DNA from: an uncultured Cytophagales bacterium
Lineage (GTDB): Bacteria; Bacteroidota; Bacteroidia; Cytophagales; Cyclobacteriaceae
Direction: 5' to 3'
Assembly (NCBI GenBank): GCA_942491935.1
Contig: CALOCZ010000028.1
Coordinates: 95,719 to 159,718, forward strand
DNA: 64,000 bases
Shown here: positions 36,970-64,000 of the stretch, piece after piece
Numbering within the stretch: position 1 is the stretch's first letter
Layout of the letters: every line of letters begins with the position of its first letter
Notes under the pieces: generated by a model
Seen by the model: only the letters and a program-made list of their open reading frames with translations
Database searches by the model: none
Told to the model about the DNA's origin: nothing
Program-made: the position numbers and the translations under genes

Positions 36970-36987
36970 AGATTATTTTTAGTCTTA

Positions 36988-38322: not shown

Positions 38323-38368
38323 CTATATCAAAAAAAAGGTGACATAGATTATCTTTTTTTTGATATAG
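38323..38368. promoter_or_regulatory. perfect 16-bp inverted repeat in the divergent cytochrome promoter region
   Basis: CTATATCAAAAAAAAG (38323-38338), a 14-nt spacer, then CTTTTTTTTGATATAG (38353-38368). It lies between the divergently transcribed genes starting at 38172 (-) and 38556 (+). Confidence 0.35.
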
Positions 38369-38555
38369 CCCATTGTTAAACTGAAAAACAAAATTTTCTT
38401 AGATGAATAATATCATGACGATGCACTTCAATATAATTTCCTAAAGGAATATTTTTGTTTATGTCCAATCAGGGTTGATAAATGGCCTAAACCGGCCAAT
38501 AAGGACCGTAATTGTACATTTAAAATATCAGGAAATTTAATTCAAAATTAAAATC

Positions 38556-39715: not shown

Positions 39716-39735
39716 TTTTAATCAATTAAAGACAT

Positions 39736-39772
39736 AAAAAAATCCCGCCTACTAGATGCAGGCGGGATTTTT
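39736..39772. terminator. bidirectional Rho-independent terminator between convergent genes
   Basis: A7 run, 10-bp stem AATCCCGCCT (39741-39750) / AGGCGGGATT (39760-39769), then a T5 run. Confidence 0.7.
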
Positions 39773-39793
39773 CATTTATAAAGTCTAATATTT

Positions 39794-40768: not shown

Positions 40769-40778
40769 ATCAAAAAAT

Positions 40779-42170: not shown

Positions 42171-42200
42171 ATTTGAAAAATAATTTAATCCTATTAATTA

Positions 42201-43253: not shown

Positions 43254-43311
43254 TTCATTAATTTAATTACAATCCAGAATCGTATTTCTTTTAGGTAAAA
43301 ATATGGGCCGA

Positions 43312-44241
43312 TCACTCTTGTTTAGAACTGAAGTTATCCAATAAAGTTTTGGCTCCTTGCTTTAATAGTTTTTCGGCCAGTGTCCTCCCGGCTAAAACAG
43401 AATTTTCCATATCGGACTCTACCTGATCATGGATTATTTTCTTACCGTCTTCACTTGCTACAAAACCCCGAATGCTTAGTTTGTTATCAGATACTCGAGC
43501 ATATGATCCTACTGGAAACTGACAACCGCTGTCGAGGGTAAATAATAATTCTCTTTCAGCAGACACAGCGTGAAAAGTTTCAAGGTGGTTAATCGACTGT
43601 AAAACTTCTGCAATATCCTTGTCTTTCTTACGAATTTGTATCCCTACAGCTCCCTGTCCAACAGCGGGGATCATATTGTCAGTAGCAAATTCCTTAAAAT
43701 TTACATTCTCAAGATTCAACCTGATAATGGCTGCCTTAGCCATGATTATAGCATCCAGGTTCTGGGCATTGAGTTTGCTGAGCCTTGTATCTATATTTCC
43801 GCGTAAATCGGAGATCAATAGATCAGGCCTCATATTTAATAATTGTGATTTTCTTCGGATGCTTCCAGTAGCGATTCTGGCATTTTCAGGTAATTGTTCA
43901 AGTGAGAGGCCTTCTTTAGTAACCAGGACATCTTCGACTGGCCCTCTTTCCGGGACAGCCCCTAAAACAAGCTCTTCCGGCATTTTTGAAGGAAGGTCTT
44001 TTAAGGAATGAACAGCAACGTCTATTTGATCTGTCAATAAAGCCCTTTCAATTTCCTTAGTAAATATTCCCTGACCTCCGATCTGGGTTAGTGAGGATTT
44101 TTGATCCAGGTCACCTTCTGTTTTAATTATTACCTGTGTGAAATTAATTCCTGGATTCAGTTTTTCCAGCATCTCTCTTACATAAGTCGCTTGCCATAAT
44201 GCCAGATTGCTTCCCCTGGTTCCAACGCGGATCGTTCGCAT
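43312..44241 (-). CDS. hemC: hydroxymethylbilane synthase (porphobilinogen deaminase)
   Basis: 309 aa with RVGTRGSNLALWQA and DLRGNIDTRL. There is no fused HemD domain at this length. Confidence 0.9.
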   Translation of the reverse strand: MRTIRVGTRGSNLALWQATYVREMLEKLNPGINFTQVIIKTEGDLDQKSSLTQIGGQGIFTKEIERALLTDQIDVAVHSLKDLPSKMPEELVLGAVPERGPVEDVLVTKEGLSLEQLPENARIATGSIRRKSQLLNMRPDLLISDLRGNIDTRLSKLNAQNLDAIIMAKAAIIRLNLENVNFKEFATDNMIPAVGQGAVGIQIRKKDKDIAEVLQSINHLETFHAVSAERELLFTLDSGCQFPVGSYARVSDNKLSIRGFVASEDGKKIIHDQVESDMENSVLAGRTLAEKLLKQGAKTLLDNFSSKQE

Positions 44242-44245
44242 ATAT

Positions 44246-45553
44246 CTATTTATCTAAGTCTATTTCGTACAAATTATATATCAGGTCGATGTGCTGCTTA
44301 TATTTTTCCGGATCACCAGCATTCTTTTTCAGGGATTTCATATGTTGGCGCACCAATTTATTAATCACATTCTGGGTGTAGTTATCAAGTTCCTTCTGGT
44401 ATCCATTTTCAGGAAACTGCTTTCGCATCCTGGTCATTTCATTATGGTGAAGTTTTTCAAAATGGCTTTTTAGCTTACTAATGATTGTGGCCATTGAATT
44501 GGTAGATACCCAGCTTTTAAACTCATCAAGATATTCCTCCACAATCTTTGATGCTTTAGGGATTTCCAATCTTCTTTTCTCCAGGTTTTGCTCAACTATC
44601 CCATTGAGATCATCCAGGTTGTAAAGGTATACGTTATTAAGGTGCTCAATTTTCGGATCTATATCCCTGGGGATGGCCAGGTCAATCAGGAAAATGGATT
44701 CATAGTATTTTTTTCTGATGATTTCTTTCATCATGCTATTGGTGATCACATAATCATCACTTGAAGTTGCAGAGATCACTATATCGGTTTCCTCCAATGC
44801 AGCGTTCAACTCACCAAGGGTAAAAGCTTTACCTCCAAATTTTTCAGCGAGTTCTTCAGCTTTGCTCAGGGTACGGTTGGCAACATTGATGGCTTTTACA
44901 TTGTTTTCAAGGAAGTGGACAGCGGCTAATTCAGCGGTTTTCCCTGCTCCAACCAGCAATATCCGCTTATCGGTAAGGTCGCCGAATATTTTCCTGGCCA
45001 GCTCCACCCCTGCAAAACTGACAGACACTGTTCCATCAGAAAGAAAGGTTTCATTTCTAACCTTTTTCTTAACCTGCATCCCAAAATTATACAGCTTATT
45101 CAATACTGCATCTGTAGCATCCAGATGATGGGCAAAGTTATAGCAATCTTTCACCTGGCCTGTTATCTGCATTTCCCCAACAATTTGAGAATCAATACCG
45201 CAAATCACATTATAAAAATGACTTACAGCTTCTGATCCAAATTTCTCATAGGTGATATTCCCATCGGTGTAATAAGGACATTTCTTATACGTGGCAAGCA
45301 TTTGCTTTAAAGCAGGAAGAATAATATCTGGTTTTTCAGCACTTATATAGAATTCAGTCCGGTTACAGGTTGACAGGATCAGGATGCCCTGAACCTCAAT
45401 TCCATTAACATCAAAATCTTCAGTGATCTTTTTTATAATCCCCTTCTGTTCTTTCTCATTGAGAGATACGAGTTCCCTTATTTCTACAGAAGCTGTTTTA
45501 TGGGAAATCCCTAGAACTCCTAATGCAATATGGCTATCCTGATTATCCCTCAT
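44246..45553 (-). CDS. hemA: glutamyl-tRNA reductase
   Basis: 435 aa with GISHKTASVEIRE, STCNRTEFY and the NAD fold LVGAGKTAE. Confidence 0.9.
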   Translation of the reverse strand: MRDNQDSHIALGVLGISHKTASVEIRELVSLNEKEQKGIIKKITEDFDVNGIEVQGILILSTCNRTEFYISAEKPDIILPALKQMLATYKKCPYYTDGNITYEKFGSEAVSHFYNVICGIDSQIVGEMQITGQVKDCYNFAHHLDATDAVLNKLYNFGMQVKKKVRNETFLSDGTVSVSFAGVELARKIFGDLTDKRILLVGAGKTAELAAVHFLENNVKAINVANRTLSKAEELAEKFGGKAFTLGELNAALEETDIVISATSSDDYVITNSMMKEIIRKKYYESIFLIDLAIPRDIDPKIEHLNNVYLYNLDDLNGIVEQNLEKRRLEIPKASKIVEEYLDEFKSWVSTNSMATIISKLKSHFEKLHHNEMTRMRKQFPENGYQKELDNYTQNVINKLVRQHMKSLKKNAGDPEKYKQHIDLIYNLYEIDLDK

Positions 45554-45555
45554 CC

Positions 45556-46380
45556 TTAATTAAACTCATGAAACGTTTCTGTAATATAAACAATCATAAA
45601 TCCTCCAACTACTAAGATAAAATAACCGGCAATTGACAAATATGCCATCTTCTTTCCATTTAATCTAAGATACTGGGCAATTATATATCCGGTAAGATAT
45701 AATGCCCATACTATATCCGTTGCGATCACTTTCATATCATTTGGCCAGAATTCACCCATAATAGCTTCTGCCTGAATATGTCCTAGCAATAACCCAATTC
45801 CAAGTAGGATAATTCCTATAAATGCAGATTGTATACTCATTTTCTCAAGGAATGAAAGCGCAGGAAGTTGGTTAAATAGCTTCCCTAAATTGCGTTTTTT
45901 AAGGTTGTGGTTTTGTATGATATACATAATGGCATACAAAGTAGACAAGGACATCGCAGTATAACCCATTATTGATAGTGATGCATGTAAGGCAAATGTA
46001 GGACTTGTTAAAAGTTCGTTGGTTTCTACCTCCCATGACAAGTTAAATGACGATATTAATTCAAGGATAAAAGCAAAGAAAAGGATAAAGATACCTGAGC
46101 CCCGGATTTTCAACCTTAGTTCAATGATCATGTACACAAATAAAATTGAAAAGGCTAAAAAGCTTAATGCATCATGAATCGTTGATAGTGGGATTGATTT
46201 CAGAACTGCATGCCTTAAGCCTATATCTGTACCGTGAATAATCAGCAGAATCCCTAAAAACAGGGTTGTCTTGTGCGTCCAGCTCTTTTTCTTTCCGGTA
46301 AATATTATATAATAAATATATATAACAGCCAGATATAAAATCGGCAGCAGGTAACTTAGAGTTTGACTGGCGACTTTCAT
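45556..46380 (-). CDS. cytochrome c assembly (CcsA) family paralogue, HemX/YpjD-like
   Basis: 274 aa with 8 TM helices. The position of the CcsA Trp-rich motif reads MGEFWPNDMKVIATD (degenerate). It ends 3 nt before hemA. Confidence 0.65.
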   Translation of the reverse strand: MKVASQTLSYLLPILYLAVIYIYYIIFTGKKKSWTHKTTLFLGILLIIHGTDIGLRHAVLKSIPLSTIHDALSFLAFSILFVYMIIELRLKIRGSGIFILFFAFILELISSFNLSWEVETNELLTSPTFALHASLSIMGYTAMSLSTLYAIMYIIQNHNLKKRNLGKLFNQLPALSFLEKMSIQSAFIGIILLGIGLLLGHIQAEAIMGEFWPNDMKVIATDIVWALYLTGYIIAQYLRLNGKKMAYLSIAGYFILVVGGFMIVYITETFHEFN

Positions 46381-46535
46381 TTTTTTACTTTCTTAATATA
46401 TAATAATATCTCATCCGAGGATATAAAATATCCTTAAATATACGAGTTTTTCAAATATTGAAATATGACATGTATCAGACAAATATTTGACATACACTCA
46501 GTTATAATTTATTTATTAACCGGATCAGGTAAATT

Positions 46536-48662
46536 TTAATCATCAGACTCATCTGTTAGCTCACCCTGGACTTCCAGCTTATTTTTCAAATTGATATCAT
46601 TAATAACAGCTAAAACACTTATTATAGTTATTCCTCCAATCATATAATATATAAAAGATGGAACAGGAACCGGATCCCCCTGCGCATAAGAGTGTAATCC
46701 TGACAGGTAATAATTTACTCCAAAATATGTCATCAATACCGCACCAAATCCAATATGAGCCATAAAGTTTATTGAAAAAAGGTTCCTCATTCCTGGAATC
46801 AGCCGCATATGAAGGATGAATGTATAAACAATAATTGTAACAAGCGACCAGGTTTCCTTTGGATCCCAACCCCAGTATCGTCCCCAGGATTCATTGGCCC
46901 AAATTCCTCCAAGGAAGTTGCCAATAACCAATAATATCAATCCAACCATAAGCGACATTTCAATTATAATGGTTAATTCTTTCAATTTCAGATTAATTCT
47001 CTCATGGTTGGCCTGATTCCTGAAAATCATAATTACAAGATTAATAATTCCTATCATTGAAGCCAGTCCAAAGAACCCATAACTAGCGGTAATGGTTGCC
47101 ACATGGAATGTAAGCCAATACGATTTCAATACAGGGACAAGGTTAGTAATTTCAGGATTCAACCAGCTCATGTGTGCTGTAAGCAGTGTAATCCCCGCCA
47201 AAATGGTGGTTGCCGATAATGTCATTGGAGATTTTTTATAGAAAATAAATCCTGCAAGCATCGTGGCCCATGCAATATATATCATGGATTCATATCCATC
47301 ACTCCAGGGGGCATGTCCGGAAATATACCATCGTAGCCCTAATCCGAATGTTTGAAAAACAAAGGCTGCCATGAGAAGCATATAGAATACCCTGATTATT
47401 TTTTTGAACTCAAGACTGGGTTTAAACAATTGAATGATAAACAATCCCAAAAGGATAAGGCCTATGGTCATGTAAATCGGGAAAAGCCGTTTAAAAATAT
47501 TAAACTTATTGTAAAAGATCTCCAGTTTCAATTTAGTATTGGAGGGTATGATAGCCTTCCCATATTTTTGCTGATGTTCCTTGATTTCTGACAAAACCTC
47601 TTCAGCTTTCTGATAATTTCCTGTGGTTATGCTTTTACTAATGGTTTCTCTTATATTGTCAAGATAGGTGGTTCTGTTTGTTGCAACAGTATCTTTTATC
47701 CGGATCTTTGCAAGTGAAACCCAGGTGTTTTCCTTATTGTCAGGAATAGGGTATACCCGGAATAAAGATCCGTTATATACCATATTGCTTACATTAACCC
47801 TTTCATCTACATTGATAATTTCCTTATCAATTTTTGATCGCAGGGCAGGGGACATGGCATAAATCCTGTCAACTTCACTTTTCAATTTATAAATGCCCCT
47901 TTCGTCAAAAAAGTCATTGTAACTGGCAAAATTATCTTTGATTCCAATGAGTTTCTGAACATCAGCTTCATAAATTTTAATCATTGGTTTGTTTTGCCAA
48001 ACATCCGGCATGATCAGCATTCCCAGGAATACCTGGTCGGCGTTCATCTTTTCAAAGGACGTTTTCTTATATATTTTAACAAGTGAATTATTGGCAATCG
48101 TGTTTAATGGGATTATCCTGCCGTCTTTGTTTTGAACCAATAGTTTACCGAATGATTCTGCAAAATCTTTATCAATTTTAGTTGCTCCCGTTTGAGCATT
48201 TGCATTATCTGTAAAAAACAGGAATGAAAGCAAGAATATTACAGATACTGCTATCTTCTTTCTCTGTGCATGCACTTCATTCATTTGTTTGGTTAGCCGG
48301 GCAAACCGCGTATTTGGAGTAAAAAGAGATAATGTAAGGGACACAAATAATAAGGTATAGCCTATATATGTGATAAGCGTTCCCCAGAAATCATGATTTA
48401 CCGAGAGGACTGTCCCCTGTTCATCCTGATCATATGAGGATTGATAAAACCGATACCCTTTGTAATCCAATACATTGTTCATGAAAATACGGAAAGGTCT
48501 TTCTTCCGCTGCATTCTTGTCAATGAGTACAATATCACTCGCAAAGGAAGAGGGACTTTGAGAGCCCGGATAGCGTTCCAGTTCAAATTTGTTGAGTTTT
48601 AGCTCAAAAGGAATGGTATAAACCTGATTCCCTATATTCATTGTAAATTGTATGTCATCCAT
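46536..48662 (-). CDS. ccsBA: System II cytochrome c maturation protein, ResB(CcsB)-CcsA fusion, 5'-truncated at the sequence join
   Basis: 708 aa. The N-terminal part matches the end of the ResB periplasmic domain (ERYPGSQSPSSFASDIVLID). The C-terminal part carries the canonical WGRYWGWDPKETW motif. The N-terminal ResB TM/His region is missing. Confidence 0.75.
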   Translation of the reverse strand: MDDIQFTMNIGNQVYTIPFELKLNKFELERYPGSQSPSSFASDIVLIDKNAAEERPFRIFMNNVLDYKGYRFYQSSYDQDEQGTVLSVNHDFWGTLITYIGYTLLFVSLTLSLFTPNTRFARLTKQMNEVHAQRKKIAVSVIFLLSFLFFTDNANAQTGATKIDKDFAESFGKLLVQNKDGRIIPLNTIANNSLVKIYKKTSFEKMNADQVFLGMLIMPDVWQNKPMIKIYEADVQKLIGIKDNFASYNDFFDERGIYKLKSEVDRIYAMSPALRSKIDKEIINVDERVNVSNMVYNGSLFRVYPIPDNKENTWVSLAKIRIKDTVATNRTTYLDNIRETISKSITTGNYQKAEEVLSEIKEHQQKYGKAIIPSNTKLKLEIFYNKFNIFKRLFPIYMTIGLILLGLFIIQLFKPSLEFKKIIRVFYMLLMAAFVFQTFGLGLRWYISGHAPWSDGYESMIYIAWATMLAGFIFYKKSPMTLSATTILAGITLLTAHMSWLNPEITNLVPVLKSYWLTFHVATITASYGFFGLASMIGIINLVIMIFRNQANHERINLKLKELTIIIEMSLMVGLILLVIGNFLGGIWANESWGRYWGWDPKETWSLVTIIVYTFILHMRLIPGMRNLFSINFMAHIGFGAVLMTYFGVNYYLSGLHSYAQGDPVPVPSFIYYMIGGITIISVLAVINDINLKNKLEVQGELTDESDD

Positions 48663-49569
48663 GGTCAGATGCCGTCGCTAACGTCGCCGCAGGCGCTCAT
48701 CGCGACACGGGTTGGATTCTATATTTACTGTCGGCACTCGCTGTGTTTGCGGCCGTAGCCGGCTCAATAGAGCTTTGGGTGTCACACCATAATAATCTCC
48801 CATGGCTTTTGCTCGAGCTAATAGCCATCAGTTCAATCATTCTACTGTTCTGGACTTCATCTAAACGGAAGTGGCATGACCACTGGCTATCGCACCGCTT
48901 CATAGCCGAACAGATGCGTTACATGCGGATGGCCTATCCGCTTTTTGTCTTTCTAGACCCGGCTGTTTTTGTCGACCGAAGATCAAAAACCACGACAAGT
49001 ATCAAGCCACAACGTGCTCTGGAGACAGCCGAATCTTGGATTGTACGTCGAGAGTTGATCGCTGCTGGGCTCCCTGCAGGAGCCGATCAAAAGCCATTTA
49101 TTGCCCGAGGTCTACTCATGTCTGTCGCGACTACGTTCTCGAAGTCGTCGGTGGACAGCTCGACTACCATAAGCGCGTAAATCGTCGGCTGCATAGTGTA
49201 ATCCATCGGCTCCATCGATTTACCTATGTGGCATTTGGCTTTACGGCCTTGGCTGTGATTGCACATTTCTTCCTCCACGCTACTTGGCTTGTATTATTCA
49301 CCGCGGCCTTGCCGGCTCTGGGCGCTGCGATACATGGCATCGTATCGGCAAATGAAATGGAGCGGGTCGCAGCCATGTCGCAGGCAATGGCAGCACGGCT
49401 CCGTCAAATTGAATTTGGACTTAAGGACATGGAGTTGTCCGATGGGGCCACCGCAGTTGAATGGCTTCGTGTACGCCATCTCACAGGTCAGGCTGCTCGT
49501 GTAATGTCGGACACAAACCGACAGTGGCAGGAGTTGATCGCTCTACGTGGCACGACACTTCCGGGGTGA
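48663..49569 (+). pseudogene. membrane protein with two 2-TM modules (SLATT/DUF4231-like, tentative), 5'-truncated and frame-shifted
   Basis: The frame is open from the join with no start codon. TM pair + KRKWHDHWLSHRFIAEQMRY, then (after a frame change near 49090-49125) GGQLDYHKRVNRRLH + a second TM pair. The ORFs at 48743 and 49036 are in different frames. Confidence 0.4.
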
Positions 49570-49638
49570 TAGAAGAAAAAACAGTTTGGCCAATTCCCGG
49601 GCGTACGCAGAGCGTGCAAGCGTCCGATAGAAGTCGCG

Positions 49639-49995
49639 GTGACTTTTGCTCAGTCATCCGGGGTTTGTGAGACCATTGAAGGACCAGTGAACTACGGGCC
49701 GGGCGATGCGATCCTCCTAGGCATGCAGGGCGAGCGCTGGCCGGTCGCACGTGAAACGTTTGCCCAAACCTATGAGCCTTTGGAACAAACGAGACCCATG
49801 CAGGATGGCCGCTATCGCAAACGCGGCGGCGAAGTGCTGGCCCTTCGCTTGAAGGCGCCGCAGCGCATCAACCTTTCTGGAGGCAGAGGAGTTGTATCGG
49901 GCCGGGTCGGCGACTGGATTGTAGACCATGGCCGCGGCGATATGGCTGCGGTCTCGGCGACGATCTTCATGGAATCTTACGAACTAATCGACTGA
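49639..49995 (+). CDS. PGDYG-domain family protein
   Basis: Contains ETIEGPVNYGPGDAILLGMQGERWPV...GRVGDWIVDHGRGDMAAV...F..SYE. The family-like sequence (ACKRPIEVAV) continues upstream of the GTG start without a canonical start codon. Confidence 0.55.
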   Translation: MTFAQSSGVCETIEGPVNYGPGDAILLGMQGERWPVARETFAQTYEPLEQTRPMQDGRYRKRGGEVLALRLKAPQRINLSGGRGVVSGRVGDWIVDHGRGDMAAVSATIFMESYELID

Positions 49996-50097
49996 GCTGA
50001 ACTAACTTCGCACCCCGCTTTAGCTCGATTCCATAAATATGATTCAAGATAACGGTTCGTACATTAGCCCAACTCGTCTTTGCGGCGAATTGGCTAC

Positions 50098-50325
50098 TCA
50101 CGATCGAGACTCTTCTTCCAGATCAGATTGACAGTGCGGGCACCTGATTGCTCTGGGATGAATGAGCTCAAAGCAGAATGGGCAAGACACGCCCTTGAGC
50201 GGTCTTCTTTCTTGAGGCTTCGTGATAAATCTATACGCCCATCTCAAGATAAGTAGGCAGCCTAGAGCGCTCAGGCCAGCAACGCCAATAGCAAGTAGGA
50301 AGACTAAAAGCGCCATACTGTCCAT
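50098..50325 (-). CDS. small membrane-anchored zinc-ribbon protein
   Basis: 75 aa with one TM (LLVFLLAIGVAGLSALGCLLIL) followed by CPFC...CPHC. Confidence 0.5.
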   Translation of the reverse strand: MDSMALLVFLLAIGVAGLSALGCLLILRWAYRFITKPQERRPLKGVSCPFCFELIHPRAIRCPHCQSDLEEESRS

Positions 50326-50675
50326 AGTCAGCCCAAAACTTCTTAGTTTTCACCTTCGACTCGTCGGAGTTAGAGGGAGAGAAGCGTAATGGTGCGACGG
50401 TAAAGATCAGCGCGCTAGGCTCGCGCTAGCTTGGCGGCCCTTCTCATCGTAGGTCTATACGTAGTCTCCGCGTCGCACGTTCACAGTAGAGGCCGTGTAT
50501 CCCTTCAGACCGTCGTTCTTTCCACCACCTGAGGGAATGCTTCCACTTTGAAGCCGTTTTTCGTCGTAGATATACACATAGTCGCCCCGCTGTAACGCAT
50601 TTTCGATTGCCGTATCCCACCTCCGCTTGCCTGATTTACAGCTCCCACAGCTCAAGAACGATTGGCTTCAGGCTT

Positions 50676-51586
50676 TTAAAGGTCTGAGGGATCAATACGA
50701 GAATCCACGGCCTCAGCCAACTCCTCTACGGGTCTCTTCCAGCTATCAGGAAGTAAATTGAGGAACCCGTGACATTGCTGAATGATATTCTGTTCAGCCC
50801 AGCTTCGTTCTTGACCGCGCTCCGCACCTGTAAGCATCAAAAGCTTGTCGATAACGCGAGTTCCGTGCAGATTCATTATCGCAAACTCGTCTAGTACGGA
50901 CTGTATTTGATCCGCAAGCTCCAAGAAACCACGCTGCTCAAGCTTTCCGTAGAATAGCATCATGCGTTTTTTCTGTCTCGCCATCCTTGATCCCCATGGC
51001 TTGCGCAACAAAGCGATCATAGACCGTCCAATAGCTTGGCTGAGCAAACCAGGAAAATTTCGTTATCGCTGAAGCTTGCAGCGTCTTCGTGTGTCCTGCT
51101 TCTTTTGCCGCCAACGCCACTTGGCGGCACTTCTCGGCGCGCTCTATGAGACTAATTGGCCACGGACGGGCCTCGTTCAGCAGTCGGGCTAGTGCATCGG
51201 CGTGACTATCCACTTTCGCCTTTTTTGCCCTGATACCCCGGTTGACATTATAAACTATCGATATTTTACGAAGGATAGGCCCATCCAGAGCGCCATTCTG
51301 TGAATCCAATAATTTGGCGAAACGGGCCATCCTCGCTGAGCCAGGTCCTCACATGCTCGACGACGGCCCAATAGAAATCACTCTTGGTCATTAAAGTCGT
51401 TGGATCCTTAGCATGCCTCGTTGGCGCAAGACCGCTCATACACAAACTATCACCTAGATCACTCGATATGGGCCGATAACCGACTATGCACAAGCAGCGC
51501 TTCTTATCGGCTTCCGACACTTCCGGGATTAACGAATAGAAGCAGCAACTGCTTTGGTGGGAGGGTTTTGCCGCGCACTGGATCAT
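50676..51586 (-). pseudogene. hypothetical gene broken into three frames
   Basis: ORFs starting at 51586, 51330 and 51047 occupy all three minus frames. They overlap end to end and read as one about 300-aa protein (...KFSWFAQPSYWTVYDRFVAQAMG...). Confidence 0.45.
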
Positions 51587-51625
51587 CAGAAAAAGTAGAT
51601 ATGCGGTCTAGTTAACCCTCGACCG

Positions 51626-52430
51626 GGCATTGTCAGAGTAAATCGGCTTGAGCCTCTTGGCGAGGTTCCTTAGCCTCCGGCGATGCGCAATCCTTCCGTT
51701 ATTTCAACAGCTCGCCCGAGGTGATCCGCCTCACAGTGATGATGTATCTCCGCTTTCCCCTGTCGCTGCGCCAGGTGGAAGATTTGCTGTTTGAACGCGG
51801 CATCGACGTCTGCCACGAGACGATCCGGTTTTGGTGGAATCGCTTCGGCCCGATGTTCGCCAACGAGATCAGGAAACGTCGCATTCTGACTCGATCATCT
51901 TCGCACTGGTGTTGGCACTTGGACGAGGTTTTCGTCAGGATCAATGGAGAGACACATTATCTCTGGCGTGCGGTTGATCACGAAGGCGAAGTGCTTGAGG
52001 TCTTTGTGACGAAGCGTCGGGATCGCAGGGCTGCGTTGAAATTCCTGAAGCGCGCGATGAAGCGCCATGGTCGACCGCGTTCGATCATAACAGACCGGCT
52101 TCGGTCGTACCGATCAGCGATGAGAGTCATCGGCAATGCTACCGATCAGGAGTGTGGTCGATGGCTCAACAATCGAGCTGACAATTCCACCAACCGTCCC
52201 GACGGCGAGAGCGAGCGATGGCGAAGTTCAGATATGCCAAGACCCTCCAGAAATTCTCCGCCGCCCACGCCTCAATCCACAACCACTTCAACCACGACCG
52301 TCACCTCAACCGCCGCGATATCTTCAAACAAAACCGTTCTGCCGCCCTGGACGAGTGGCATCAGCTGGCGGCCTGAACGCCTCATATCAACACCCTTCGT
52401 CAGTTCTGCTCAGCTTTGTCTGACAGTGCC
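51626..52430 (+). mobile_element. IS6-family insertion sequence, copy 1 (805 bp, transposase with two frameshifts)
   Basis: Termini GGCATTGTCAGAGTAAAT and (reverse complement) GGCACTGTCAGACAAAG. The transposase frame is broken near codon 5 and near 52185. Confidence 0.8.
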
Positions 52431-52722
52431 CATACAAGGGCTATCTGGGCGCGGCCGCGCTCCACAACGTCCTTGGGTTTTTTTATGCCGGGAGGTAGGC
52501 GAGCGAGAATATTCTGTCTGACGTCAGCGCTTATGGTCGGAGAGATCCACGATAGCGTGCCCGCGATTCTGGCACCCAATAGCCACGAGCGGCGGATCGG
52601 TGCCGAACCGGACCCGCACGACCTTCTGATCCTTACCCCTCCGAGCCCATGACGATGTGGCCGATCTCCACGCGCGTGAACTCGCTAGCCAAGGATGATG
52701 CTGCCTTACTAGATCCCGTTAT
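52431..52722 (+). pseudogene. 3' remnant of an SOS-response-associated peptidase (SRAP/YedK, DUF159) gene
   Basis: It starts at the IS end. It reads ...FCLTSALMVGEIHDSVPAILAPN...LLILTPPSP, then a frame change, then MTMWPISTRVNSLAKDDAALLDPV. This matches the SRAP C-terminal pattern HDRMP.IL ... M...PVS..VN...ND...L..PV. Confidence 0.5.
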
Positions 52723-52917
52723 GGAGAACTGGGGTCTGACGAAACCTTCGGCACATACGCGTGTGTCAGCTGCTTGTCGATTTCAATCCCAACAACTGGC
52801 AGCCGAACGACCCAACTTACGTCCGATCCTGACGTGTCACCCGTGTAGTGTAGCGTTGTGGAACTCAGGACCAGAACGGACTCACGTGGCTTCCAGATAT
52901 CTCATGCATCCAAGCTC

Positions 52918-53010
52918 AAGACGATGCGGCCGATCTCCAAGCGCGTAAGTCCATCTGTTTATGGTGATGTAGCCCTAGTAGAGAGAGTTCAAGAAAACCG
53001 ACGGCCATAA
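52918..53010 (+). pseudogene. second short SRAP C-terminal fragment
   Basis: KTMRPISKRVSPSVYGDVALVERV. At DNA level GACGATGCGGCCGATCTCCAAGCGCGTAAG is 27/30 identical to 52651-52680. Confidence 0.3.
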
Positions 53011-53213
53011 GAGCAATTGCGTCTGTCGGTCTTCTTGAAGAACTCAGCGCTCGGTTCCATCTGTAAGGGGAAGCATCAAGAGAGGGGGTTGCCCTCACCA
53101 ACCTGCTCACCCGGGCAAGGTGGTTCCCAAAAAATAGGGGATGCGGCCAGAGCGGCAACGAAACGGGTCGTACAGCCATTCCCTCCTCGGCGCAGCACAA
53201 TTAGGAGGGCTTT

Positions 53214-53839
53214 ATGGCGAGACGAGACACCCCCTTTGCGGCACTCATCAAAAAGCGTTGTCGAGAGCTCGGCTTTAGCCGTAGTGATCTCATCGGCCGC
53301 TGCGATTACAAGAACATCGCCAAGGGCCTACGTCGACTAGATGCAGCGTTCGCTGGAGACTTGGATAAAGCGGCAACGCTCATTGAGAAGCTACCCGTGG
53401 CTCTAAATCTCTCTCCCGAGATTATTCAGCAGGCAGCGACTGAAACCGTACGATTGATAGCGGACGAAGAGGACGCTCGCTGGCGTGCCTCCTTCCAACC
53501 GGAAGCCTTTTTGCTTGGCATCAGTAATCGGCCTTCGCAAATTTGGATCTACGGCATCAGCGGCGGTGCGGAGGAGAGATGGCTCAAGATCCCCCTCGAT
53601 CTGAGCCAACCGCGGCAACCTATGCGGCTCAGGCGCTATCGACGGCTCGGAGAACGCCCATCGTACCATTCTTCGGTCCGGCAACCGGTTTTGTCGTGAA
53701 TTACACCCCCGATCATGCAGTGCGCTTCAATCTGGAAGGGAGCCCTATCGAGACGCTTAGGCGCGCTTATCGTCCGGGAGAGGTCGCGCTCTGTCTGGGC
53801 GGTCGCGAGCTTCCGTTGAGAGTATTGGAAGAGCGTTAG
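53214..53839 (+). pseudogene. hypothetical protein gene with one frameshift
   Basis: ORFs 53214-53699 (frame 0) and 53543-53839 (frame 2) overlap and read on from each other near 53600. Confidence 0.4.
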
Positions 53840-54014
53840 TTGCGCCCCGACAATGCCGGCAGATCTAGGTCCGTTTTGCGACAAGGCGTACGTCGTCGGC
53901 CATGCCGAACAGAGAACGATGCGACAGAAAATGCGAAATAGGCTGGCACTCGGGGTGAAAGGACACAGATGAAACCAACAATGAGCATTGAGCATGTAGA
54001 ACATGACGCGGACG

Positions 54015-54155
54015 GGCGTTGTCAGAGCAAAGTCTAAATACTTGGAGCGGCCATCGAACCGCTCAGATCGACCCGGAAAAATGCAGGAAAATCAATGGCC
54101 GCGAAATCCGGTTCTAACGGGTTGGCGAAGTAAACGAATTTGCTCTGACAATGCC
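54015..54155. mobile_element. 141-bp MITE-like element bounded by IS6-type terminal inverted repeats
   Basis: The left end is GGCGTTGTCAGAGCAAAGTC and the right end (reverse complement) is GGCATTGTCAGAGCAAATTCG. The interior is unrelated to the IS copies and has no ORF. Confidence 0.45.
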
Positions 54156-54468
54156 TGACGAAGACCTCATCCAGGTGCCAGCGCCAGTGCGAATACGATC
54201 GAGCCTGAATGCGATGTTTTCTGATCTCGTTGGCGAACATCGGACCGAAACGATTCCACCAGAACCGCACCGTCTCGTGGCAGATGTCGATGCCACGCTC
54301 GAACAGAATATCCTCGACTTGCCGCAGCGACAGCGGATAGCGGATGTACATCATCACCGTGAGGCGGATCACCTCAGGCGAGCTGTTGAAACAACGGAAG
54401 GGATTACGCATCGCCGGACGCTAAGGAACGCCCCTGACCAGCTCAAGCTAATTTACTCTGACAATGCC
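54156..54468 (-). mobile_element. IS6-family fragment: left end plus first ~85 transposase codons
   Basis: The IR ends at 54468 (reverse complement GGCATTGTCAGAGTAAATTAGC). MRNPFRCFNSSPEVIRLTVMMY...WHLDEVFVR then runs into the MITE-like IR at 54155. Confidence 0.75.
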
Positions 54469-54577
54469 CTCTATGGCCATCGGCCCTTCCGCACTTGATC
54501 AGCCTCAAAGACGCAATATCGCTTTCGGCAGTTCATGAGCGTGTCGCGCGAGGCGTCGTCGACCACCCATCTTCGAC

Positions 54578-54630
54578 GACGCTAATGCTGTCGGCAGGCC
54601 CGGTTTGCTCGCGCCAGCAGGCCAGGCTTT
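54578..54630. repeat. copy A of a ~53-bp GC-rich dispersed repeat
   Basis: GACGCTAATGCTGTCGGCAGGCCCGGTTTGCTCGCGCCAGCAGGCCAGGCTTT has about 85% identity to 55149-55202. Confidence 0.5.
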
Positions 54631-54738
54631 CTAATGGGCTCTGGTCGCCGCCTTTGGTCCCTGCGATGCTGTGTCATTGAGGATAGGCGATTGAGGGCTC
54701 CCAGAAGCCAGATCGTTTTCAGCGATTAGGAGTACGAC

Positions 54739-54990
54739 GTGATTAGATTTATTGTCGCCTGCGCGATGGTCCTTGGTATCTTTGCGTTTGCGCCCACGAA
54801 AGCGAACGCGGGCGTCTATGTCAGAGCACCCGGTGTCAGCGTCAACGTAGGCCGTTCCTACTATCGGCCCTACAGGTACTACAGGCCATACGGATACTAT
54901 GGCTACCGGGCCTACCGTCGGCCCTACTACCGGGTGCGACCTCACAAGCGACGTTGGCGTCGTCGTTGGCGGCGTGCCTACTATTGGTAG
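54739..54990 (+). CDS. small secreted Tyr/Arg-rich protein
   Basis: GTG start 7 nt after AGGAG. Signal peptide MIRFIVACAMVLGIFAFAPTKANA. The mature 59 aa contain 15 Tyr, 17 Arg and 3 Trp. Confidence 0.5.
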   Translation: MIRFIVACAMVLGIFAFAPTKANAGVYVRAPGVSVNVGRSYYRPYRYYRPYGYYGYRAYRRPYYRVRPHKRRWRRRWRRAYYW

Positions 54991-55148
54991 ACGCTGTTGG
55001 TAGGGCGGTGCGACGTTGATAGGTATCGCGGCCAGCCGGTGAGCCACCAAGTTCTGTTCGCGCCATTGATCCGCATCAACACAACGATGCTTCTCTCAGA
55101 AGCCTGATAGTAGTGCCGCGCTAGGCGTCGTATTCGAGACAATAGCAG

Positions 55149-55202
55149 CGACGCCTATGCTGTCGGCAGGCCCGGCTCGCTCGCACCCGTAGGCCCGGCT
55201 TG
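55149..55202. repeat. copy B of the ~53-bp GC-rich dispersed repeat
   Basis: GACGCCTATGCTGTCGGCAGGCCCGGCTCGCTCGCACCCGTAGGCCCGGCTTG abuts the start of the 72-aa ORF. Confidence 0.5.
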
Positions 55203-55418
55203 CGTGCGAAAGCAGGCCAGTTTGCACCGCCATGGCAGGTCGAGCAGATACCGGGCGGCTACAAGGTGCTGGACGCCAACGGCCAAGCCTTGGCCTACGT
55301 TTACGCGATATATACAAAAGCCCAAGCCGACATTGCAAAGGTCCTGACCTTCGATGAGGCGCGGCGGATTGCCGTGAATGTTGCTAAGCTGCCGGAGGTT
55401 CTACGGTCAGGGGAGTAG
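55200..55418 (+). CDS. small conserved-looking hypothetical protein
   Basis: 72 aa (TTG start uncertain): PPWQVEQIPGGYKVLDANGQALAYVY...LTFDEARRIAVNVAKLPEVL. No recognised domain. Confidence 0.4.
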   Translation: MRAKAGQFAPPWQVEQIPGGYKVLDANGQALAYVYAIYTKAQADIAKVLTFDEARRIAVNVAKLPEVLRSGE

Positions 55419-55577
55419 ACCCATGCGCCGAGCCATACTGGCTGCCGTCAACCACCGCGCATGACCTTAGGCTGCCACGCACCGTGCTGCCTGCATGATG
55501 GTCGAAGTAGACTTACGTAAGGCGTAATGAGCTGCGAGGTAGCTACGGGGGGCTATCAGATAGGGGACCCAACGCCC

Positions 55578-56066
55578 TCACTGTTGGCGGATGGCAGGAA
55601 GAAGCGAGGCAAGTGAGGCGTTTAGCTGATTGGCTTCAGTTAGGAGCTTTTGCAACTCGCCGAAGACTTGCCTGCCTAAAGCGCTCATGTTTAGCCGTTT
55701 AGCTTCAGAGGGCTGGAACCAACCCATTCCCTGGCCTTCGCCCAACACGAGTTCACTTCCATCGTATCTATCGAGGAAGAGAAAGCTTACGTAGTTTGCC
55801 TCTCTATGGGTAAATCGTTGGGAAGTCCAAAAGCGGGGATCATTCAAGCTGTAAGATAGCTCCTCAAGCGCCTCCCTCTTCAAAGCCTGTTCGGGCGTCT
55901 CGTTCCTTTCAATCTCGCCGCCAAAGAACGACCAGCATCCCGGAAAAGTAGGCGCGTCTTCTGTACGATGTTGGAGCAAGAACCTGTTCTCGTGATCGTA
56001 CAAGATCAAGCCGGCTAACTGCTTAGTCATAAGCGGTTCCGCTGGGTTTCCAGCGCCGGTTATCAC
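55578..56066 (-). CDS. NUDIX hydrolase
   Basis: 162 aa with the Nudix box GGEIERNETPEQALKREALEELS. Confidence 0.8.
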   Translation of the reverse strand: MITGAGNPAEPLMTKQLAGLILYDHENRFLLQHRTEDAPTFPGCWSFFGGEIERNETPEQALKREALEELSYSLNDPRFWTSQRFTHREANYVSFLFLDRYDGSELVLGEGQGMGWFQPSEAKRLNMSALGRQVFGELQKLLTEANQLNASLASLLPAIRQQ

Positions 56067-56318
56067 GACCCGCGCGCCGGCGATGATCCGAGCGCCCTAT
56101 AGACAGACGCCTTCGACAGGGAAGTCTGCCTCATAATCTCAGGCACTGTCATGCCTGACTTCCTCAGCTTCCGAACTTGTTTGATCGTCTCGGGTACGAG
56201 AATGGGCTTGCGTCCAAACTTCACGCCACGATCCTGGGCTTTAGCAATCCCGTCCATCTGCCGCTCGCGGCGTATGTCATTCTCGAACTCTGCGATAAGA
56301 GCCAGGATGCCTATCACC
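56063..56318 (-). pseudogene. serine recombinase/resolvase, C-terminal part only (5' end removed by IS)
   Basis: ...GILALIAEFENDIRRERQMDGIAKAQDRGVKFGRKP plus the C-terminal HTH. The catalytic N-terminal domain is absent and the IS6 right end abuts at 56319. Confidence 0.65.
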
Positions 56319-56822
56319 GGCATTATCAGACTAACTAATCATGAGCTGGCCGATTACAATCGGTCAAGACTCTCACGCTGCGAGTTGACGCCATTCCGCG
56401 AGTGCGGCAGCACGGTTCTGCTTGAAGACGTCGCGGCGGTTGACATGGCGGCCGTGGTTGAAGTGGTTGTGGACTGATGCGTGGGCGGCGGCGAACTTTT
56501 GGAGTGTTTTCATGTCTCTGAACTTCGCCATCGCTCGTTCTCGTCGTCGGAACGGCTGGTGTGAATTCTCAGCCCGGTTGTTCAGCCATCGACCGCACTC
56601 CTGATCGGCAGCATTGCCGATGACTCTCATCGCGGATCGGTACGAGCGTAGCCGGTCGGTTACAACTGATCGCGGTCGGCCGTAACGCTTCATCGCACGC
56701 TTTAGGAACTTCAACGCAGCCCTACGATCCCGGCGCTTCGTCGCGAAGACCTCAAGCACCTCACCTTCGTGATCTACCGCTCGCCAGAGATAATGCGTCT
56801 CTCCATTGATCCTGACGAAGAC
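56319..56822 (-). mobile_element. IS6-family fragment: right end plus last ~150 transposase codons
   Basis: IR GGCATTATCAGACTAAC at 56319. The transposase runs from VFVRINGETHYLWRAVDHEGE to ...EWRQLAA. Homology stops at ...CCTGACGAAGAC (56822). Confidence 0.75.
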
Positions 56823-56873
56823 GCAACGGGGAGCAACCCATGCGCTCCGGCATGGGCCGAAACTTCTACGACG

Positions 56874-57815
56874 CTATAGGCCGCGCGCCCAGGCTGGCCT
56901 CAGCGGGGCCGCTTCAGGCGCGGCTATAGCCGCACGCAATTCTTGCAGCAGCCGCGGCTTATCCACTCCCAGCGTCCCTTTCAGGATCAACCAGTTCGAG
57001 GCGTGGTCGCTGCGGAATATGGTCCGTTTCAGCTCCAGTTGGGAAAGGAACCGCTCCATTTCCTGCATCAAGCCCAGCACACTGAGCGGCTCCCAGCTGG
57101 GAAAATTTTCGCGCAGCCGCGACTCGCCTTTTGGGAAGCTCACAACAAGCGTGGCGAGATATTCGGGTTGCGCGGCGTTCATCAGCGCCGCCGAGTTCAG
57201 CGCATGCTGACGTGACAGCGCCTGGCCGCCGAGGCCGTTGAGGACCATCACCGAGCGTTTGATCCCCGCCTCTTGCAACTTTTCGAGCGCCTCCCGCGTA
57301 GTCGCGAAGGTTTCCCCCTTGTTGACCCGCGCCAGCACTTCGTCGTCGCCGGATTCCGCCCCCACATAGACGAGCGACAGGCCAAGCTCTGCCAGCTCCC
57401 GAAGCTCCGCCGCCGATTTCTTGCGCAAATTGCGCGGCAGGCAATAGCTCGACACCCGCCGTACGCCGGGCAGATCGCAGCGGATCGCCTCAAGTACGGT
57501 CGCGAGGCGACGGGTTGAAAGCGTCATCGCATCGCCATCGGCCAGGAAAACGCGCTTGACGCCCTCGCCAAATTGTTCGCCGCAGCGCCGGATGTTTTCG
57601 AGCACTTCCTCCTCGCTACGGGGACGGAAGCGCTTCTGCGGGGCGGTGTACATTTCGCAGAATGTGCACCGGTTCCAGGAACAGCCGTCAGTCACAGGCA
57701 GGATCAGCGAATCCGCTTCGCTCGGCGGGCGGTAGACGGGTTCGACATAGCGGATGGGGATGACGGTCATGCGTGAGCGACAGACTTTCCGGAACGGACG
57801 AAGGGGCGAAGACAA
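56874..57815 (-). CDS. radical SAM superfamily protein, unknown substrate
   Basis: 313 aa (the alternative start MTVIPIRY is at 57770). Cluster motif VTDGCSWNRCTFCEMY, followed by a GDA/GxE-type SAM-binding pattern (FLADGDAM, YVGAESGDD). Confidence 0.7.
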   Translation of the reverse strand: MSSPLRPFRKVCRSRMTVIPIRYVEPVYRPPSEADSLILPVTDGCSWNRCTFCEMYTAPQKRFRPRSEEEVLENIRRCGEQFGEGVKRVFLADGDAMTLSTRRLATVLEAIRCDLPGVRRVSSYCLPRNLRKKSAAELRELAELGLSLVYVGAESGDDEVLARVNKGETFATTREALEKLQEAGIKRSVMVLNGLGGQALSRQHALNSAALMNAAQPEYLATLVVSFPKGESRLRENFPSWEPLSVLGLMQEMERFLSQLELKRTIFRSDHASNWLILKGTLGVDKPRLLQELRAAIAAPEAAPLRPAWARGL

Positions 57816-58023
57816 AGTTTAACGCAACAGAAGCGATAATCGAAAACTTTTGCCGGCCGATTGTCGGTCGCGGCGGGGCGAAAGGGGCGTCAAACCGGTT
57901 GAGTTTTTCCCGTCCGGCGCATCCGAGTAGCCGGTGGGAGCAGGCCGCGCCCGGCCAGTGGGTTACAGCCCACTGCATGGTACCCCCATAGAAACTCGAA
58001 GAGGCTCCGTCCCGGTATTGTCA

Positions 58024-58821
58024 GACAAATCTAACCGGGCCTGCGAAGGGTGCTGATCTGAAGCGTTCAGGCTGCGAGTTGACGCCATTCCGAGAAAGCG
58101 GCAGCGCGGTTCTGCTTGAAGATGGCGCGGGGTTTGAGGTGACGGTCGAGGTTGAAGTGGTTGTGGATCGAGGCATGGGCGGCGGCAAACTTTTGGAGAA
58201 TTTTTATGTCTCTGAACTTCGCCATCGCTCGTTCTCGTCGTCGGAATGGCTCGTGTGAATTCTCAGCCAGATTGTTGAGCCATCGACTACACTCCTGATC
58301 GGCCGCATTGCCGATTACTTTCATTGCCGCCCCGTAGGAGCGAAGCCGGTCAGTCACGATCGAACCTGGCCGGCCATAGCGTTTCATCATTCTCTTGAGA
58401 AACTTCAGTGCCGCTTTACGGTCTCGGCGCTTCGTCGCGAAGACCTCAAAAGCGCCTCGCCTTCGTGATCTACCGCGCGCCAGAGATAATGCGTCTCTCC
58501 ATTGATCCTGACGAACACCTCGTCCAGGTGCCAGCGCCATTGTGAAGACGACCGACGATGAAGGCGTCGTTTCCTGATCGCGTTCGCGAACATCGGACCG
58601 AAACGGTTCCACCAGAACCGTATCGTCTCGTGACAGATGTCGATGCCCCGCTCGAACAGAATATCCTCGACCTGCCGCAGCGACAGCGGATAGCGGACGT
58701 ACATCATCACCGTGAGGCGGATCACCTCAGGCGAGCTGTTGAAATAGCGGAAGGGATTGCGCATCGCCGAAGGCTAAGGATGCCCCCTGCTCGGCTCAAG
58801 CCAATTTGCTCTGACAATGCC
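58024..58821 (-). mobile_element. IS6-family insertion sequence, copy 4 (798 bp, transposase frame-shifted)
   Basis: Ends GGTATTGTCAGACAAATC (58024) and reverse complement GGCATTGTCAGAGCAAATTGG (58821). A TT insertion (GCGCTTTTGAGG vs GTGCTTGAGG in other copies) splits the ORF. Confidence 0.8.
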
Positions 58822-58912
58822 CGTGGAAGCGTCGCTCAACTGCTTCCCCCCGCACTGATACAGGGCCAACCACGACGAAGGCGCGTATCGGACGCCAACC
58901 TATTGAAGCGGT

Positions 58913-59395
58913 CTAATCCATCATTTGTAGCGCTATGTCCTCGGCATTGGGCAAAACACCTTCACAAGCCTTTTTGACCTTCTCAGCTGCATCGTTCCGA
59001 GCCCTAAGGTTGGAGTTCCTAAAGTTCAGGGCACTCATACTGTCACCATCACGGCTAATGAAGACTGCACCTTGCTGGCGAGCCAACTCCTCAAGCGCCT
59101 GTCGACAATCCTTTGCCTGTTGCAACCCCTCGCCCTCGAGCCCCTCCCGGTCGAGCTTCACAGCATAGTTTCCATTTTCAATGGCCCAATTGACCGGATA
59201 AGTGATTTTCGCAGTCGCCCCTCCTTGGCTCTTCCTTTTCTTTTTCTTTTTCTTCTTTGGCGGATCGACGATCACCGTGTGCGTGCCGTCTCCGTTGTCA
59301 ATGAACTCGCTTTCGGCAGCGGCTACCGATGGGTGATAGGCCGACAGGAGAGAGGCACCCAAAAGCAAACGGAGGAACCGGGACATAAAGTTCAT
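58913..59395 (-). CDS. small secreted protein with a poly-lysine tract
   Basis: 160 aa with RBS GAGGGGAG and signal peptide MNFMSRFLRLLLGASLLSAYHPSVAAAE. Contains the tract DPPKKKKKKKRKSQGG. It is the only gene between two inverted IS6 copies. Confidence 0.55.
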   Translation of the reverse strand: MNFMSRFLRLLLGASLLSAYHPSVAAAESEFIDNGDGTHTVIVDPPKKKKKKKRKSQGGATAKITYPVNWAIENGNYAVKLDREGLEGEGLQQAKDCRQALEELARQQGAVFISRDGDSMSALNFRNSNLRARNDAAEKVKKACEGVLPNAEDIALQMMD

Positions 59396-59513
59396 AACTC
59401 CCCTCATAAAATAAGACGGATACAAAGGAATTAGCCAACGCGTCGAGAACCGGCGTGATGTCATGAAAACCTCTCTCAAGGCCCCCCCGCAAGTAGAGCT
59501 TAGCAGCCTGGGG

Positions 59514-60320
59514 GGCATTGTCAGAGTAAATTGGCTTGAGCCGAGCAGGGGCATCTTTAGCTTTCGGCGATGCGCACTCCCTTCCGATATTTCAACAGCT
59601 CGCCCGAGGTGATCCGCCTCACGGTGATGATGTATGTCCGCTATCCGCTGTCGCTGCGGTAGGTCGAAGATATTCTCTCCGAGCGTGGCATCGACATCTG
59701 TCACGAGACGGTACGGTTCTGGTGGAATCGTTTCGGTCTGATGTTTGCGGGGGAGATCAGGAACCGACGCTTTCATCATCGGTCGTATTCGCACTGGCGC
59801 TGGCACCTGGACGAGGTCTTCGTCAGGATCAATGGAGAGATGCATTATCTCTGGCGAGCGGTAGATCACGAAGGTGAGGTGCTTGAGGCCTTCGTGACGA
59901 AGCGCCGGGATCGCAGGGCTGCGTTGAAGTTCCTAAAGCGTGCGATGAAGCGTTACGGCCGACCGCGATCAGTTGTAACCGACCGGCTACGCTCGTACCG
60001 ATCCGCGATGAGAGTCATCGGCAATGCTACCGATCAGGAGTGCGGTCGCTGGCTGAACAACCGGGCTGAGAATTCACACCAGCCGTTCCGACGACGAGAA
60101 CGAGGGATGCAGAGGTTCAGGGCCGTAAGGACCCTACAGAAATTTACCGCTGTCCATGCCTCGATCCACAATCACACCAACCACGACCGCCACCTCAACC
60201 GCCGCGATATCTTCAGACAGAACCGTTCTGACGCCCTGGCCGAGTGGCGTCAGCTGGCGGCTTGAACGCCTCACACCAGAGCACCCTTCGCAGCCCCGCC
60301 TAAGTTTGTCTGACAATGCC
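59514..60320 (+). mobile_element. IS6-family insertion sequence, copy 5 (807 bp, transposase with a single in-frame TAG)
   Basis: Ends GGCATTGTCAGAGTAAATTGG and reverse complement GGCATTGTCAGACAAACTTAGG. The ORF 59570-60265 is open except for TAG at 59660-59662 (CAG in the other copies). Confidence 0.8.
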
Positions 60321-60457
60321 ATCAAAACCCTCTCTCACTGCTAACCACATAGTGGTCCAGTTTTAGGGGGCCAAGACACGGTCACACCCGAATCCTGGCG
60401 GACTCCATCACCAACACGTCGGAGTCTAGGTTTTTGGTACACACAGGTATTGCGCGG

Positions 60458-60484
60458 TCCGGGCAGGCCTTAACCCTGCCCGGA
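60458..60484 (-). terminator. stem-loop immediately downstream of katG
   Basis: 10-bp perfect stem TCCGGGCAGG / CCTGCCCGGA with a 7-nt loop, 13 nt past the katG stop. There is no U-tract. Confidence 0.4.
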
Positions 60485-60496
60485 CTTCCTCTTGTA

Positions 60497-63697
<3,201 letters not shown>

Positions 63698-64000
63698 AAA
63701 GCCTCGGACCAGCGCAGTACAAAATGCGTAAGTTCCTCAATTCCAACAACGGTAAGGCAGAACCTGCCCTGATTTGCCAATTGGTTTGCATCCCAATGTC
63801 CGCTTGGGGTCGACGGTTCCGACAAGCTCAGCGAGGCTGTCAGCGCGCTATACTAGATTGTCGGCGAACAGACGGCCAACTAAATGCCAAACCCACGAAC
63901 GGTTTTGCATTTGCGTGGCTGCATTGGATCACTAGCTGACCTCGGCTGCCGATACAGCATGACCGCTTTACATCCGTAAGCAGACATCCGGCCTCGCGAT

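Follow-up and report, generated by a model that had tools for sequence, protein, structure and literature searches.

Inter-genome translocation, in which stretches of two different genomes are assembled as one, is reported to be the most prevalent type of misassembly in the assemblies of the CAMI benchmark (PMC9661791). Here we describe a join with the outward appearance of that type at about position 48,660 of a 64,000-nucleotide stretch of DNA attributed to an uncultured Cytophagales bacterium (contig CALOCZ010000028.1 of assembly GCA_942491935.1, positions 95,719 to 159,718; the whole stretch is called the window below). On its left, a Bacteroidota chromosome segment breaks off within ccsBA, which encodes a ResB-CcsA fusion, the system II cytochrome c synthase; on its right, GC-rich DNA of apparently alphaproteobacterial origin opens within a gene for a DUF4231/SLATT-like membrane protein (Table 1). 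From comparison of the sequences on both sides, we consider it very probable that two unrelated genomes were joined here non-biologically, either by concatenation of records or contigs or through a chimeric read or template.

The break between the two compositional regimes is real and spans three bases. Direct base counts give a G+C content of 20/60 in 48601-48660 versus 37/60 in 48661-48720, exactly the values reported in an earlier annotation of this DNA made from its letters alone (hereafter the sequence-only reading). That reading had also claimed that the two regimes persist to the ends of the window, and every 1-kb bin agrees: all bins left of the join have 31-44% G+C, and all bins right of it 50-64%, with overall values of 37.8% for the left block and 56.7% for the right block. 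Under a two-state Bernoulli model, the maximum-likelihood change point is at 48,658 (2-log support interval 48,647-48,681; log-likelihood gain of 851), and additional change points placed within the two sides gain at most 5 and 14. Furthermore, we compared the tetranucleotide composition of the halves, a check that the sequence-only reading had proposed, using strand-symmetrised profiles of chunks of about 8 kb. Correlations were r = 0.94-0.97 within the left block and 0.85 between the two right chunks, that is, 0.85-0.97 within sides, versus about -0.3 (-0.27 to -0.36) across the join. No gradient and no amelioration was seen near the join in either base or tetranucleotide composition.

We found that the left DNA continues differently in other assemblies. 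A 1.21-Mb contig of a related Bacteroidota metagenome-assembled genome (MAG; ena:ERZ25039514:contig_16226, here L089) is collinear in blastn with window positions 36474-48662, at a nucleotide identity of 95.0% over 37,645-48,662 and 90% over 36474-37545. This alignment stops at exactly 48,662, and that to a contig from the Joint Genome Institute (JGI; L088, 92.3% identity) stops at the same base. Past 48,662, both contigs supply the missing 5' end of ccsBA, followed by a pair of cytochrome c genes and a pair of NrfD/Fer4 complexes, a continuation that occurs nowhere else in the window save for paralogues of 64-66% identity at 33-35 kb. Two independent sequences of the left flank therefore part from the window at the breakpoint. 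Logan contigs from seven runs match 42847-47091 without gaps at 98.9-99.6%, and the left DNA is also present in four further ENA contigs, one ENA/NCBI contig and one JGI metagenome. Its genes are of chromosome type (hemA-C-E-N-B, multihaem cytochromes, NrfD complexes, an M20 peptidase and an alpha-galactosidase), and a search of the left block against the plasmids of PLSDB gave no match.

The two halves also differ in the taxonomy of their best matches, as the sequence-only reading had proposed. Relatives of the CcsBA protein are exclusively Bacteroidota (among them Cyclobacteriaceae and Cytophagales at 61-62% identity and Bacteroidales MAGs at about 50%), which bears out the assignment of the left half to this phylum; a scan of GTDB genomes with the CcsBA remnant gave identities of at most 50% among the matches listed. 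The catalase-peroxidase KatG of the right block is 92% identical to an ENA protein, 86% to that of Yoonia, 84% to that of Sulfitobacter and 83% to a plasmid copy of Dinoroseobacter shibae, and the best plasmid matches of its IS6-family insertion sequences (IS) are from Sulfitobacter, Pseudorhodobacter, Mesorhizobium and Octadecabacter. Judged from these nearest relatives of KatG and IS6, the right block is assigned to marine Alphaproteobacteria.

At the join, ccsBA is cut. What is left of it corresponds to residues 314-1021 of an intact orthologue, and the ResB match of this open reading frame (ORF) begins at position 197 of the 486 in the Pfam profile, so that the fusion does begin at 48662 inside ResB, as had been read from the sequence alone. 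The same holds for the five in-frame codons (R R H L T) described between its ATG and a TAG, the latter already part of the GC-rich DNA. Full-length CcsBA relatives have 1,021-1,035 residues. The six closest form one cluster, 96-97.7% identical over all 708 residues; each carries 313-325 additional N-terminal residues, and each has Ile in place of the apparent start Met. The missing N-terminal part includes three transmembrane (TM) helices and a conserved TM histidine, and TM histidines are needed for haem transport by CcsBA (PMC6299221). Since this region is lost and many c-type cytochromes are encoded nearby, a real truncation of ccsBA would be costly. The remnant nonetheless contains no stop and no frameshift over its 708 codons, and its ratio of non-synonymous to synonymous substitution rates (dN/dS) against the L089 orthologue is 0.048 at a dS of 0.20, indistinguishable from the values of six intact neighbour genes (0.047-0.112). 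If the truncation were real, the lack of any visible decay would make it essentially as young as yesterday.

These findings bear directly on the reading that the junction is genuine. Under this hypothesis, at least 15 kb of alphaproteobacterial DNA would have entered a Bacteroidota chromosome very recently by illegitimate recombination of the end-joining type, with ccsBA and the incoming DUF4231/SLATT-like pseudogene broken at random points. Purifying selection on the remnant that equals the selection on intact neighbours, a gene that is intact in all of the closest relatives, and the loss of the haem-export histidine region in an organism with so many c-type cytochromes all argue against such an event, as does a composition without any amelioration. 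A genuine junction would fit with both flanks being of high quality and agreeing with independent assemblies at 99-100%, almost free of indels, with a join that is free of Ns, adapters and filler, and with a right block that is rich in mobile elements and widespread in environmental samples; the ATG that happens to stand at the join also keeps the 708-residue ORF open. The join, however, shows no integrase, att site, transfer RNA (tRNA) gene, IS end or target-site duplication, offers a microhomology of at most 3 nt, and is absent from every other data set searched. On balance we regard a genuine junction as unlikely. The sequence-only reading had likewise ranked illegitimate recombination or horizontal gene transfer below an artefact, and this order stands, given the lack of both a mobile signature and decay of ccsBA.

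The gene on the right of the join is cut as well. On the plus strand its frame has no stop from 48647 through the join and beyond, and the earliest codon that could serve as a start is the GTG at 48743; both points agree with the earlier statement that a frame runs open through the join without a start codon. The nearest homologue among 5.8 billion proteins (P0121, 336 residues) is 51% identical and has about 48 more N-terminal residues. Three further proteins (P0123-P0125) also align, and a Caballeronia plasmid carries a tblastn match whose annotation reads "DUF4231 domain-containing protein", which places this gene, too, nearest to Proteobacteria. In Pfam, DUF4231, SLATT_3 and SLATT_1 are matched weakly, each under the gathering score, and with a nearest homologue at merely 51% identity this family is poorly sampled. 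In addition to its truncation the gene is frameshifted near 49,130, where the frame 48665-49180 gives way to the frame 49036-49569. Whereas the rest of the right block is on public record, no public collection was found to contain the segment 48663-51625 to which it belongs: exact look-ups of the four nearest right-side ORFs (49639-49995, 48743-49180, 50098-50325 and 50938-51330) returned no record, and the 24-mer adjacent to the join on the right is absent from the JGI metagenome contigs.

We then place the join at the level of single bases. In base-level alignments to L088 and L089, unambiguous left homology stops at 48,659 and the three following bases are ambiguous; in the alignment to P0121, the right protein homology opens at a Trp codon, tgg, at 48662-48664. 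The two homologies meet within 48,660-48,662 and thus overlap by no more than 3 nt. The window contains no N characters, and neither adapter 12-mers nor filler sequence was found near the join. No k-mer of 16 or more is common to the two window halves near the join, or to the right block and the native continuation of the left DNA. Direct and inverted repeats around the join do not exceed chance 8-13-mers, tRNA genes are absent from the entire 64-kb window, and none of the flanking genes (ccsBA, the DUF4231-like gene and a PGDYG gene) encodes an integrase. The closest terminal repeat of an IS6 copy, at 51626, is 2.96 kb away, so that the join is no IS end. Searches for repeats, tRNA genes, inverted repeats and domains are therefore all in line with the sequence-only reading, which had listed no repeat, att-like site, tRNA, integrase or IS end at the boundary.

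Two further explanations are affected by these results. A chimera induced by a repeat in the assembly graph, where a de Bruijn or overlap assembler switches genomes, or else a join made by a scaffolder, would have the advantage that inter-genome translocations are the commonest class of misassembly in short-read metagenome assemblies (PMC9661791). A misjoin of the first sort is made unlikely by the lack of a shared k-mer of 16 or more at the join and by flanking homologies that overlap by 3 nt at most, and scaffolding by the absence of the Ns that a scaffolder would leave; we hold this explanation to be very unlikely. Delivery of the GC-rich block by an IS6/IS26-type cointegrate, a composite transposon or an integrative island is in our view barely credible. 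The right block does hold at least five IS6 copies or remnants, and its DNA shows IS6-linked structural variants between samples. IS6 events, however, put a terminal repeat at the junction and here the nearest is almost 3 kb away, all transposase copies in the window are split or truncated, and no integrase, tRNA or att-like repeat is present, so that the explanation is contradicted at the one boundary that lies inside the window.

A CCATGG palindrome, the recognition sequence of NcoI, straddles the join at 48,659-48,664. The left relatives read TATAAT (L089) and AATTAT (L088) at this position and hence have no NcoI site, and the chance that some palindromic hexamer straddles any given point is about 8%; we treat its presence as probably due to chance. 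An origin of the join by NcoI restriction and ligation, which would call for a site native to both parent sequences, finds no support in the left relatives. An adapter or transposase mosaic end was rejected for want of 12-mer matches, and GTCAGATG, considered as an adapter or mosaic end at the join, was rejected because it is coding sequence conserved in the homologue.

The reading that we favour is that no cell made this join and that two unrelated DNA molecules were set end to end by some other process. A Bacteroidota chromosome fragment would end within ccsBA, and an alphaproteobacterial fragment would start about 48 codons inside the DUF4231/SLATT-like gene. Two separate contigs or records may have been written consecutively without a separator, or the assembler may have bridged the two contig ends with a template or read that was itself chimeric, whether from ligation, from library preparation or as a long read left unsplit. 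These two routes are the most likely ones because the join is flush, with no spacer, repeat or common sequence. None of the fetched contigs that bear one block (L001-L007, L088-L104) holds DNA of the other block. The sequence-only reading had preferred an assembly or scaffolding chimera, and its preference for a chimera is supported by the homology end points, the cut genes and the dN/dS of 0.048; its mention of scaffolding fares less well, since the window has no Ns.

An artefact is strongly inferred from sequence comparison; several points weigh against it. As there is no shared repeat at the join, the commonest mechanism of such artefacts does not apply and a rarer one is needed. Both organisms are known solely from environmental metagenome assemblies, so that natural contact between them is possible. 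Furthermore, no collection yielded the DNA that natively precedes the right block at 48,663, and a differing continuation elsewhere is therefore shown for the left flank only. Finally, a check for the same junction in independent assemblies, which the sequence-only reading had suggested, found the junction 35-mer in neither the JGI metagenome contigs nor IMG/VR, and the junction ORFs (708 residues, in an index of 153 billion genes, and 145 residues), looked up as exact sequences, gave no record; as evidence such an absence is weak, since these collections do not include the source assembly.

Table 1. Coordinates of the two blocks, the join and the features on either side of it within the window.
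Feature	Coordinates	Strand	Basis and remarks
Left block, Bacteroidota chromosome segment	1..48659		Ends at 48659-48662; composition, CcsBA relatives, collinearity with L089
ccsBA remnant (ResB-CcsA fusion, system II cytochrome c synthase)	46536..48662	-	708 codons; Pfam ResB and Cytochrom_C_asm
Join proper, c-a-t, assignable to neither side	48660..48662		Base-level alignment to L088 and L089; protein alignment to P0121
Right block, judged alphaproteobacterial, rich in IS6 and pseudogenes	48663..64000		Reaches the window end; composition, KatG, IS6 matches
DUF4231/SLATT-like gene for a two-TM protein, 5'-truncated and frameshifted	48662..49569	+	Weak Pfam matches; P0121 alignment
Gene for a PGDYG-domain protein	49639..49995	+	Pfam PF14083, E = 3.4e-16; first apparently intact gene of the right side
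IS6-family copy nearest to the join, transposase frameshifted	51626..52431	+	Inverted repeat GGCATTGTCAGAGTAAA at 51626; DDE_Tnp_IS240; extent from L096
IS6 remnants	54015..54468	-	141-bp piece with both terminal repeats (54015-54155) and 315-bp 5' fragment (54154-54468)
Serine resolvase, C-terminal remnant, 86 aa	56063..56323	-	Last ~30 catalytic-domain positions and HTH_7
IS6 remnant, 3' part of transposase, 128 aa	56319..56822	-	
Full-length IS6 copy, 808 bp, split transposase	58014..58821	-	Same split ORFs in L094
Full-length IS6 copy, 807 bp, split transposase	59514..60320	+	
katG, catalase-peroxidase, frameshifted	60497..62865	-	ORFs 62865-62281 (194 aa) and 62230-60497 (577 aa)
LysR-type (oxyR-like) regulator, divergent from katG	62790..63700	+	HTH_1 part in frame, rest frameshifted

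The sequence-only reading had described the right side as carrying IS6 copies, katG-oxyR and a resolvase, and as typical of proteobacterial plasmids. All of these genes are present, with the correction that katG and oxyR are frameshifted (intact KatG relatives have about 725 residues) and that the resolvase is no more than an 86-residue remnant. The IS6 terminal repeat, with the consensus GGCATTGTCAGAGYAAA, occurs eight times at up to 3 mismatches, the occurrence closest to the join being that at 51,626. The IS6 copies and remnants, at least five in number, are 77-91% identical to one another, and every transposase is split or truncated. NUDIX, radical-SAM and PGDYG genes and a SAM-I/IV riboswitch complete the block. 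Its relatives by KatG and IS6 are alphaproteobacterial as that reading would have it; a plasmid origin is plausible yet unproven, because the right block contains no replication, partition or transfer gene. Searches of PLSDB by megablast and blastn, with the right block and with 48,663-51,620 alone, gave no close relative, the only matches being to katG, at no more than 74%. The contig with the closest KatG (L099, 92%) has an intact LysR-katG pair in a chromosome-like context and shares no synteny past oxyR-katG.

Much of the right block recurs elsewhere. In at least 12 other samples, assembled with MEGAHIT, in SPAdes style or by JGI, window positions 54,014-59,960 recur at an identity of 98.7-100% and never beside left DNA, and a JGI Illumina contig (L094) matches at 99.97% with its IS6 ORFs split in the same way. 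Long-read indel noise was rejected as the source of the right-side frameshifts, as the same split ORFs are found in Illumina assemblies at 99.97-100%, and by this comparison the right-side pseudogenes are taken to be real. IS6-linked structural variants exist between samples, with window positions 54156-54413 absent from L091, L096 and L098. Across 51626-60320, decayed IS6 copies are interleaved with the resolvase remnant and the NUDIX and radical-SAM genes, and this region looks like a widespread, old mobile-element graveyard of an uncultured marine alphaproteobacterium. The riboswitch is a SAM-I/IV aptamer (RF01725) at 53068-53172 on the plus strand, scoring 61.8 bits (gathering score, 41.1), and stands directly upstream of an ORF of 161 residues (53214-53699) that has no Pfam match. 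Another ORF without a Pfam match (58913-59869, minus strand, 318 residues) has, in its C-terminal part, a segment resembling a signal peptide and a nine-lysine run within KKKKKKKRK; towards the N-terminus the frame is antisense to an IS6 copy, and it is probably a shorter real gene that has been artificially extended.

On the other side of the join, respiratory haem proteins abound in the left organism, as seen across 29226-48662 and positions 1-10000 of L089. A hemA-hemC-hemE-hemN-hemB cluster lies directly downstream of ccsBA, and the window also holds a NapC/NirT-type multihaem cytochrome (29226-30728) and an NrfD/Fer4_11 complex (33200-35490). Upstream of ccsBA, L089 carries two more paralogous NrfD complexes and two cytochrome c genes.

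The join is very probably not a real genomic feature, and it is a matter of quality control, not of biology. Because it points to a chimeric or concatenated sequence, no inference should be carried across 48,660, and the two blocks need to be analysed as separate sequences. Linking the halves would yield a Bacteroidota with proteobacterial IS6, katG and oxyR, arguments from operons and gene neighbourhood, a "novel truncated CcsBA" and a host for the mobile DNA, all of them spurious. If the join sits in a deposited contig or MAG, it amounts to cross-phylum contamination, and the sequence is to be split at 48,660-48,662. Were the junction genuine, it would record a very recent transfer between phyla without mobile-element machinery, into an uncultured, sediment-type Bacteroidota whose system II cytochrome c synthase would have been knocked out by it.

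Compared with known kinds of junction, the locus resembles a horizontally acquired island or an IS26-type composite in its foreign composition, its IS6 copies, its resolvase remnant and its accessory katG-oxyR. Unlike an acquired island, it lacks an integrase, a tRNA and an att site, its boundary is not an IS end, its composition is not ameliorated, and the host gene that is cut is undecayed; furthermore, an island has two boundaries, whereas the second boundary of the right block lies outside the window. The integrase, repeat or tRNA that defines the boundary of an integrase-mediated island is thus missing here, and so is the terminal inverted repeat abutting host DNA that, along with an 8-bp target duplication, defines an IS6/IS26 cointegrate or composite. 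The likeness to a concatenation of records without a spacer is closer: the join is flush and has no Ns, repeats or adapters, both pieces end inside genes, and each piece is internally consistent and of high quality. A contig of 56% G+C is not normally binned with a genome of 38% G+C, and concatenated pieces would therefore have had to lie side by side, either in an assembly file that was not binned or in a bin that was contaminated. The locus differs from the usual inter-genome translocation in that the shared repeat that causes it is absent, and a chimeric read or template would be responsible instead. It shares with inter-genome translocation misassemblies the abrupt switch in composition and taxonomy, the genes cut on both sides and flanks that match different organisms, and two of the features that define an inter-genome join, a composition step at a single point and flanks from unrelated taxa, are found here.

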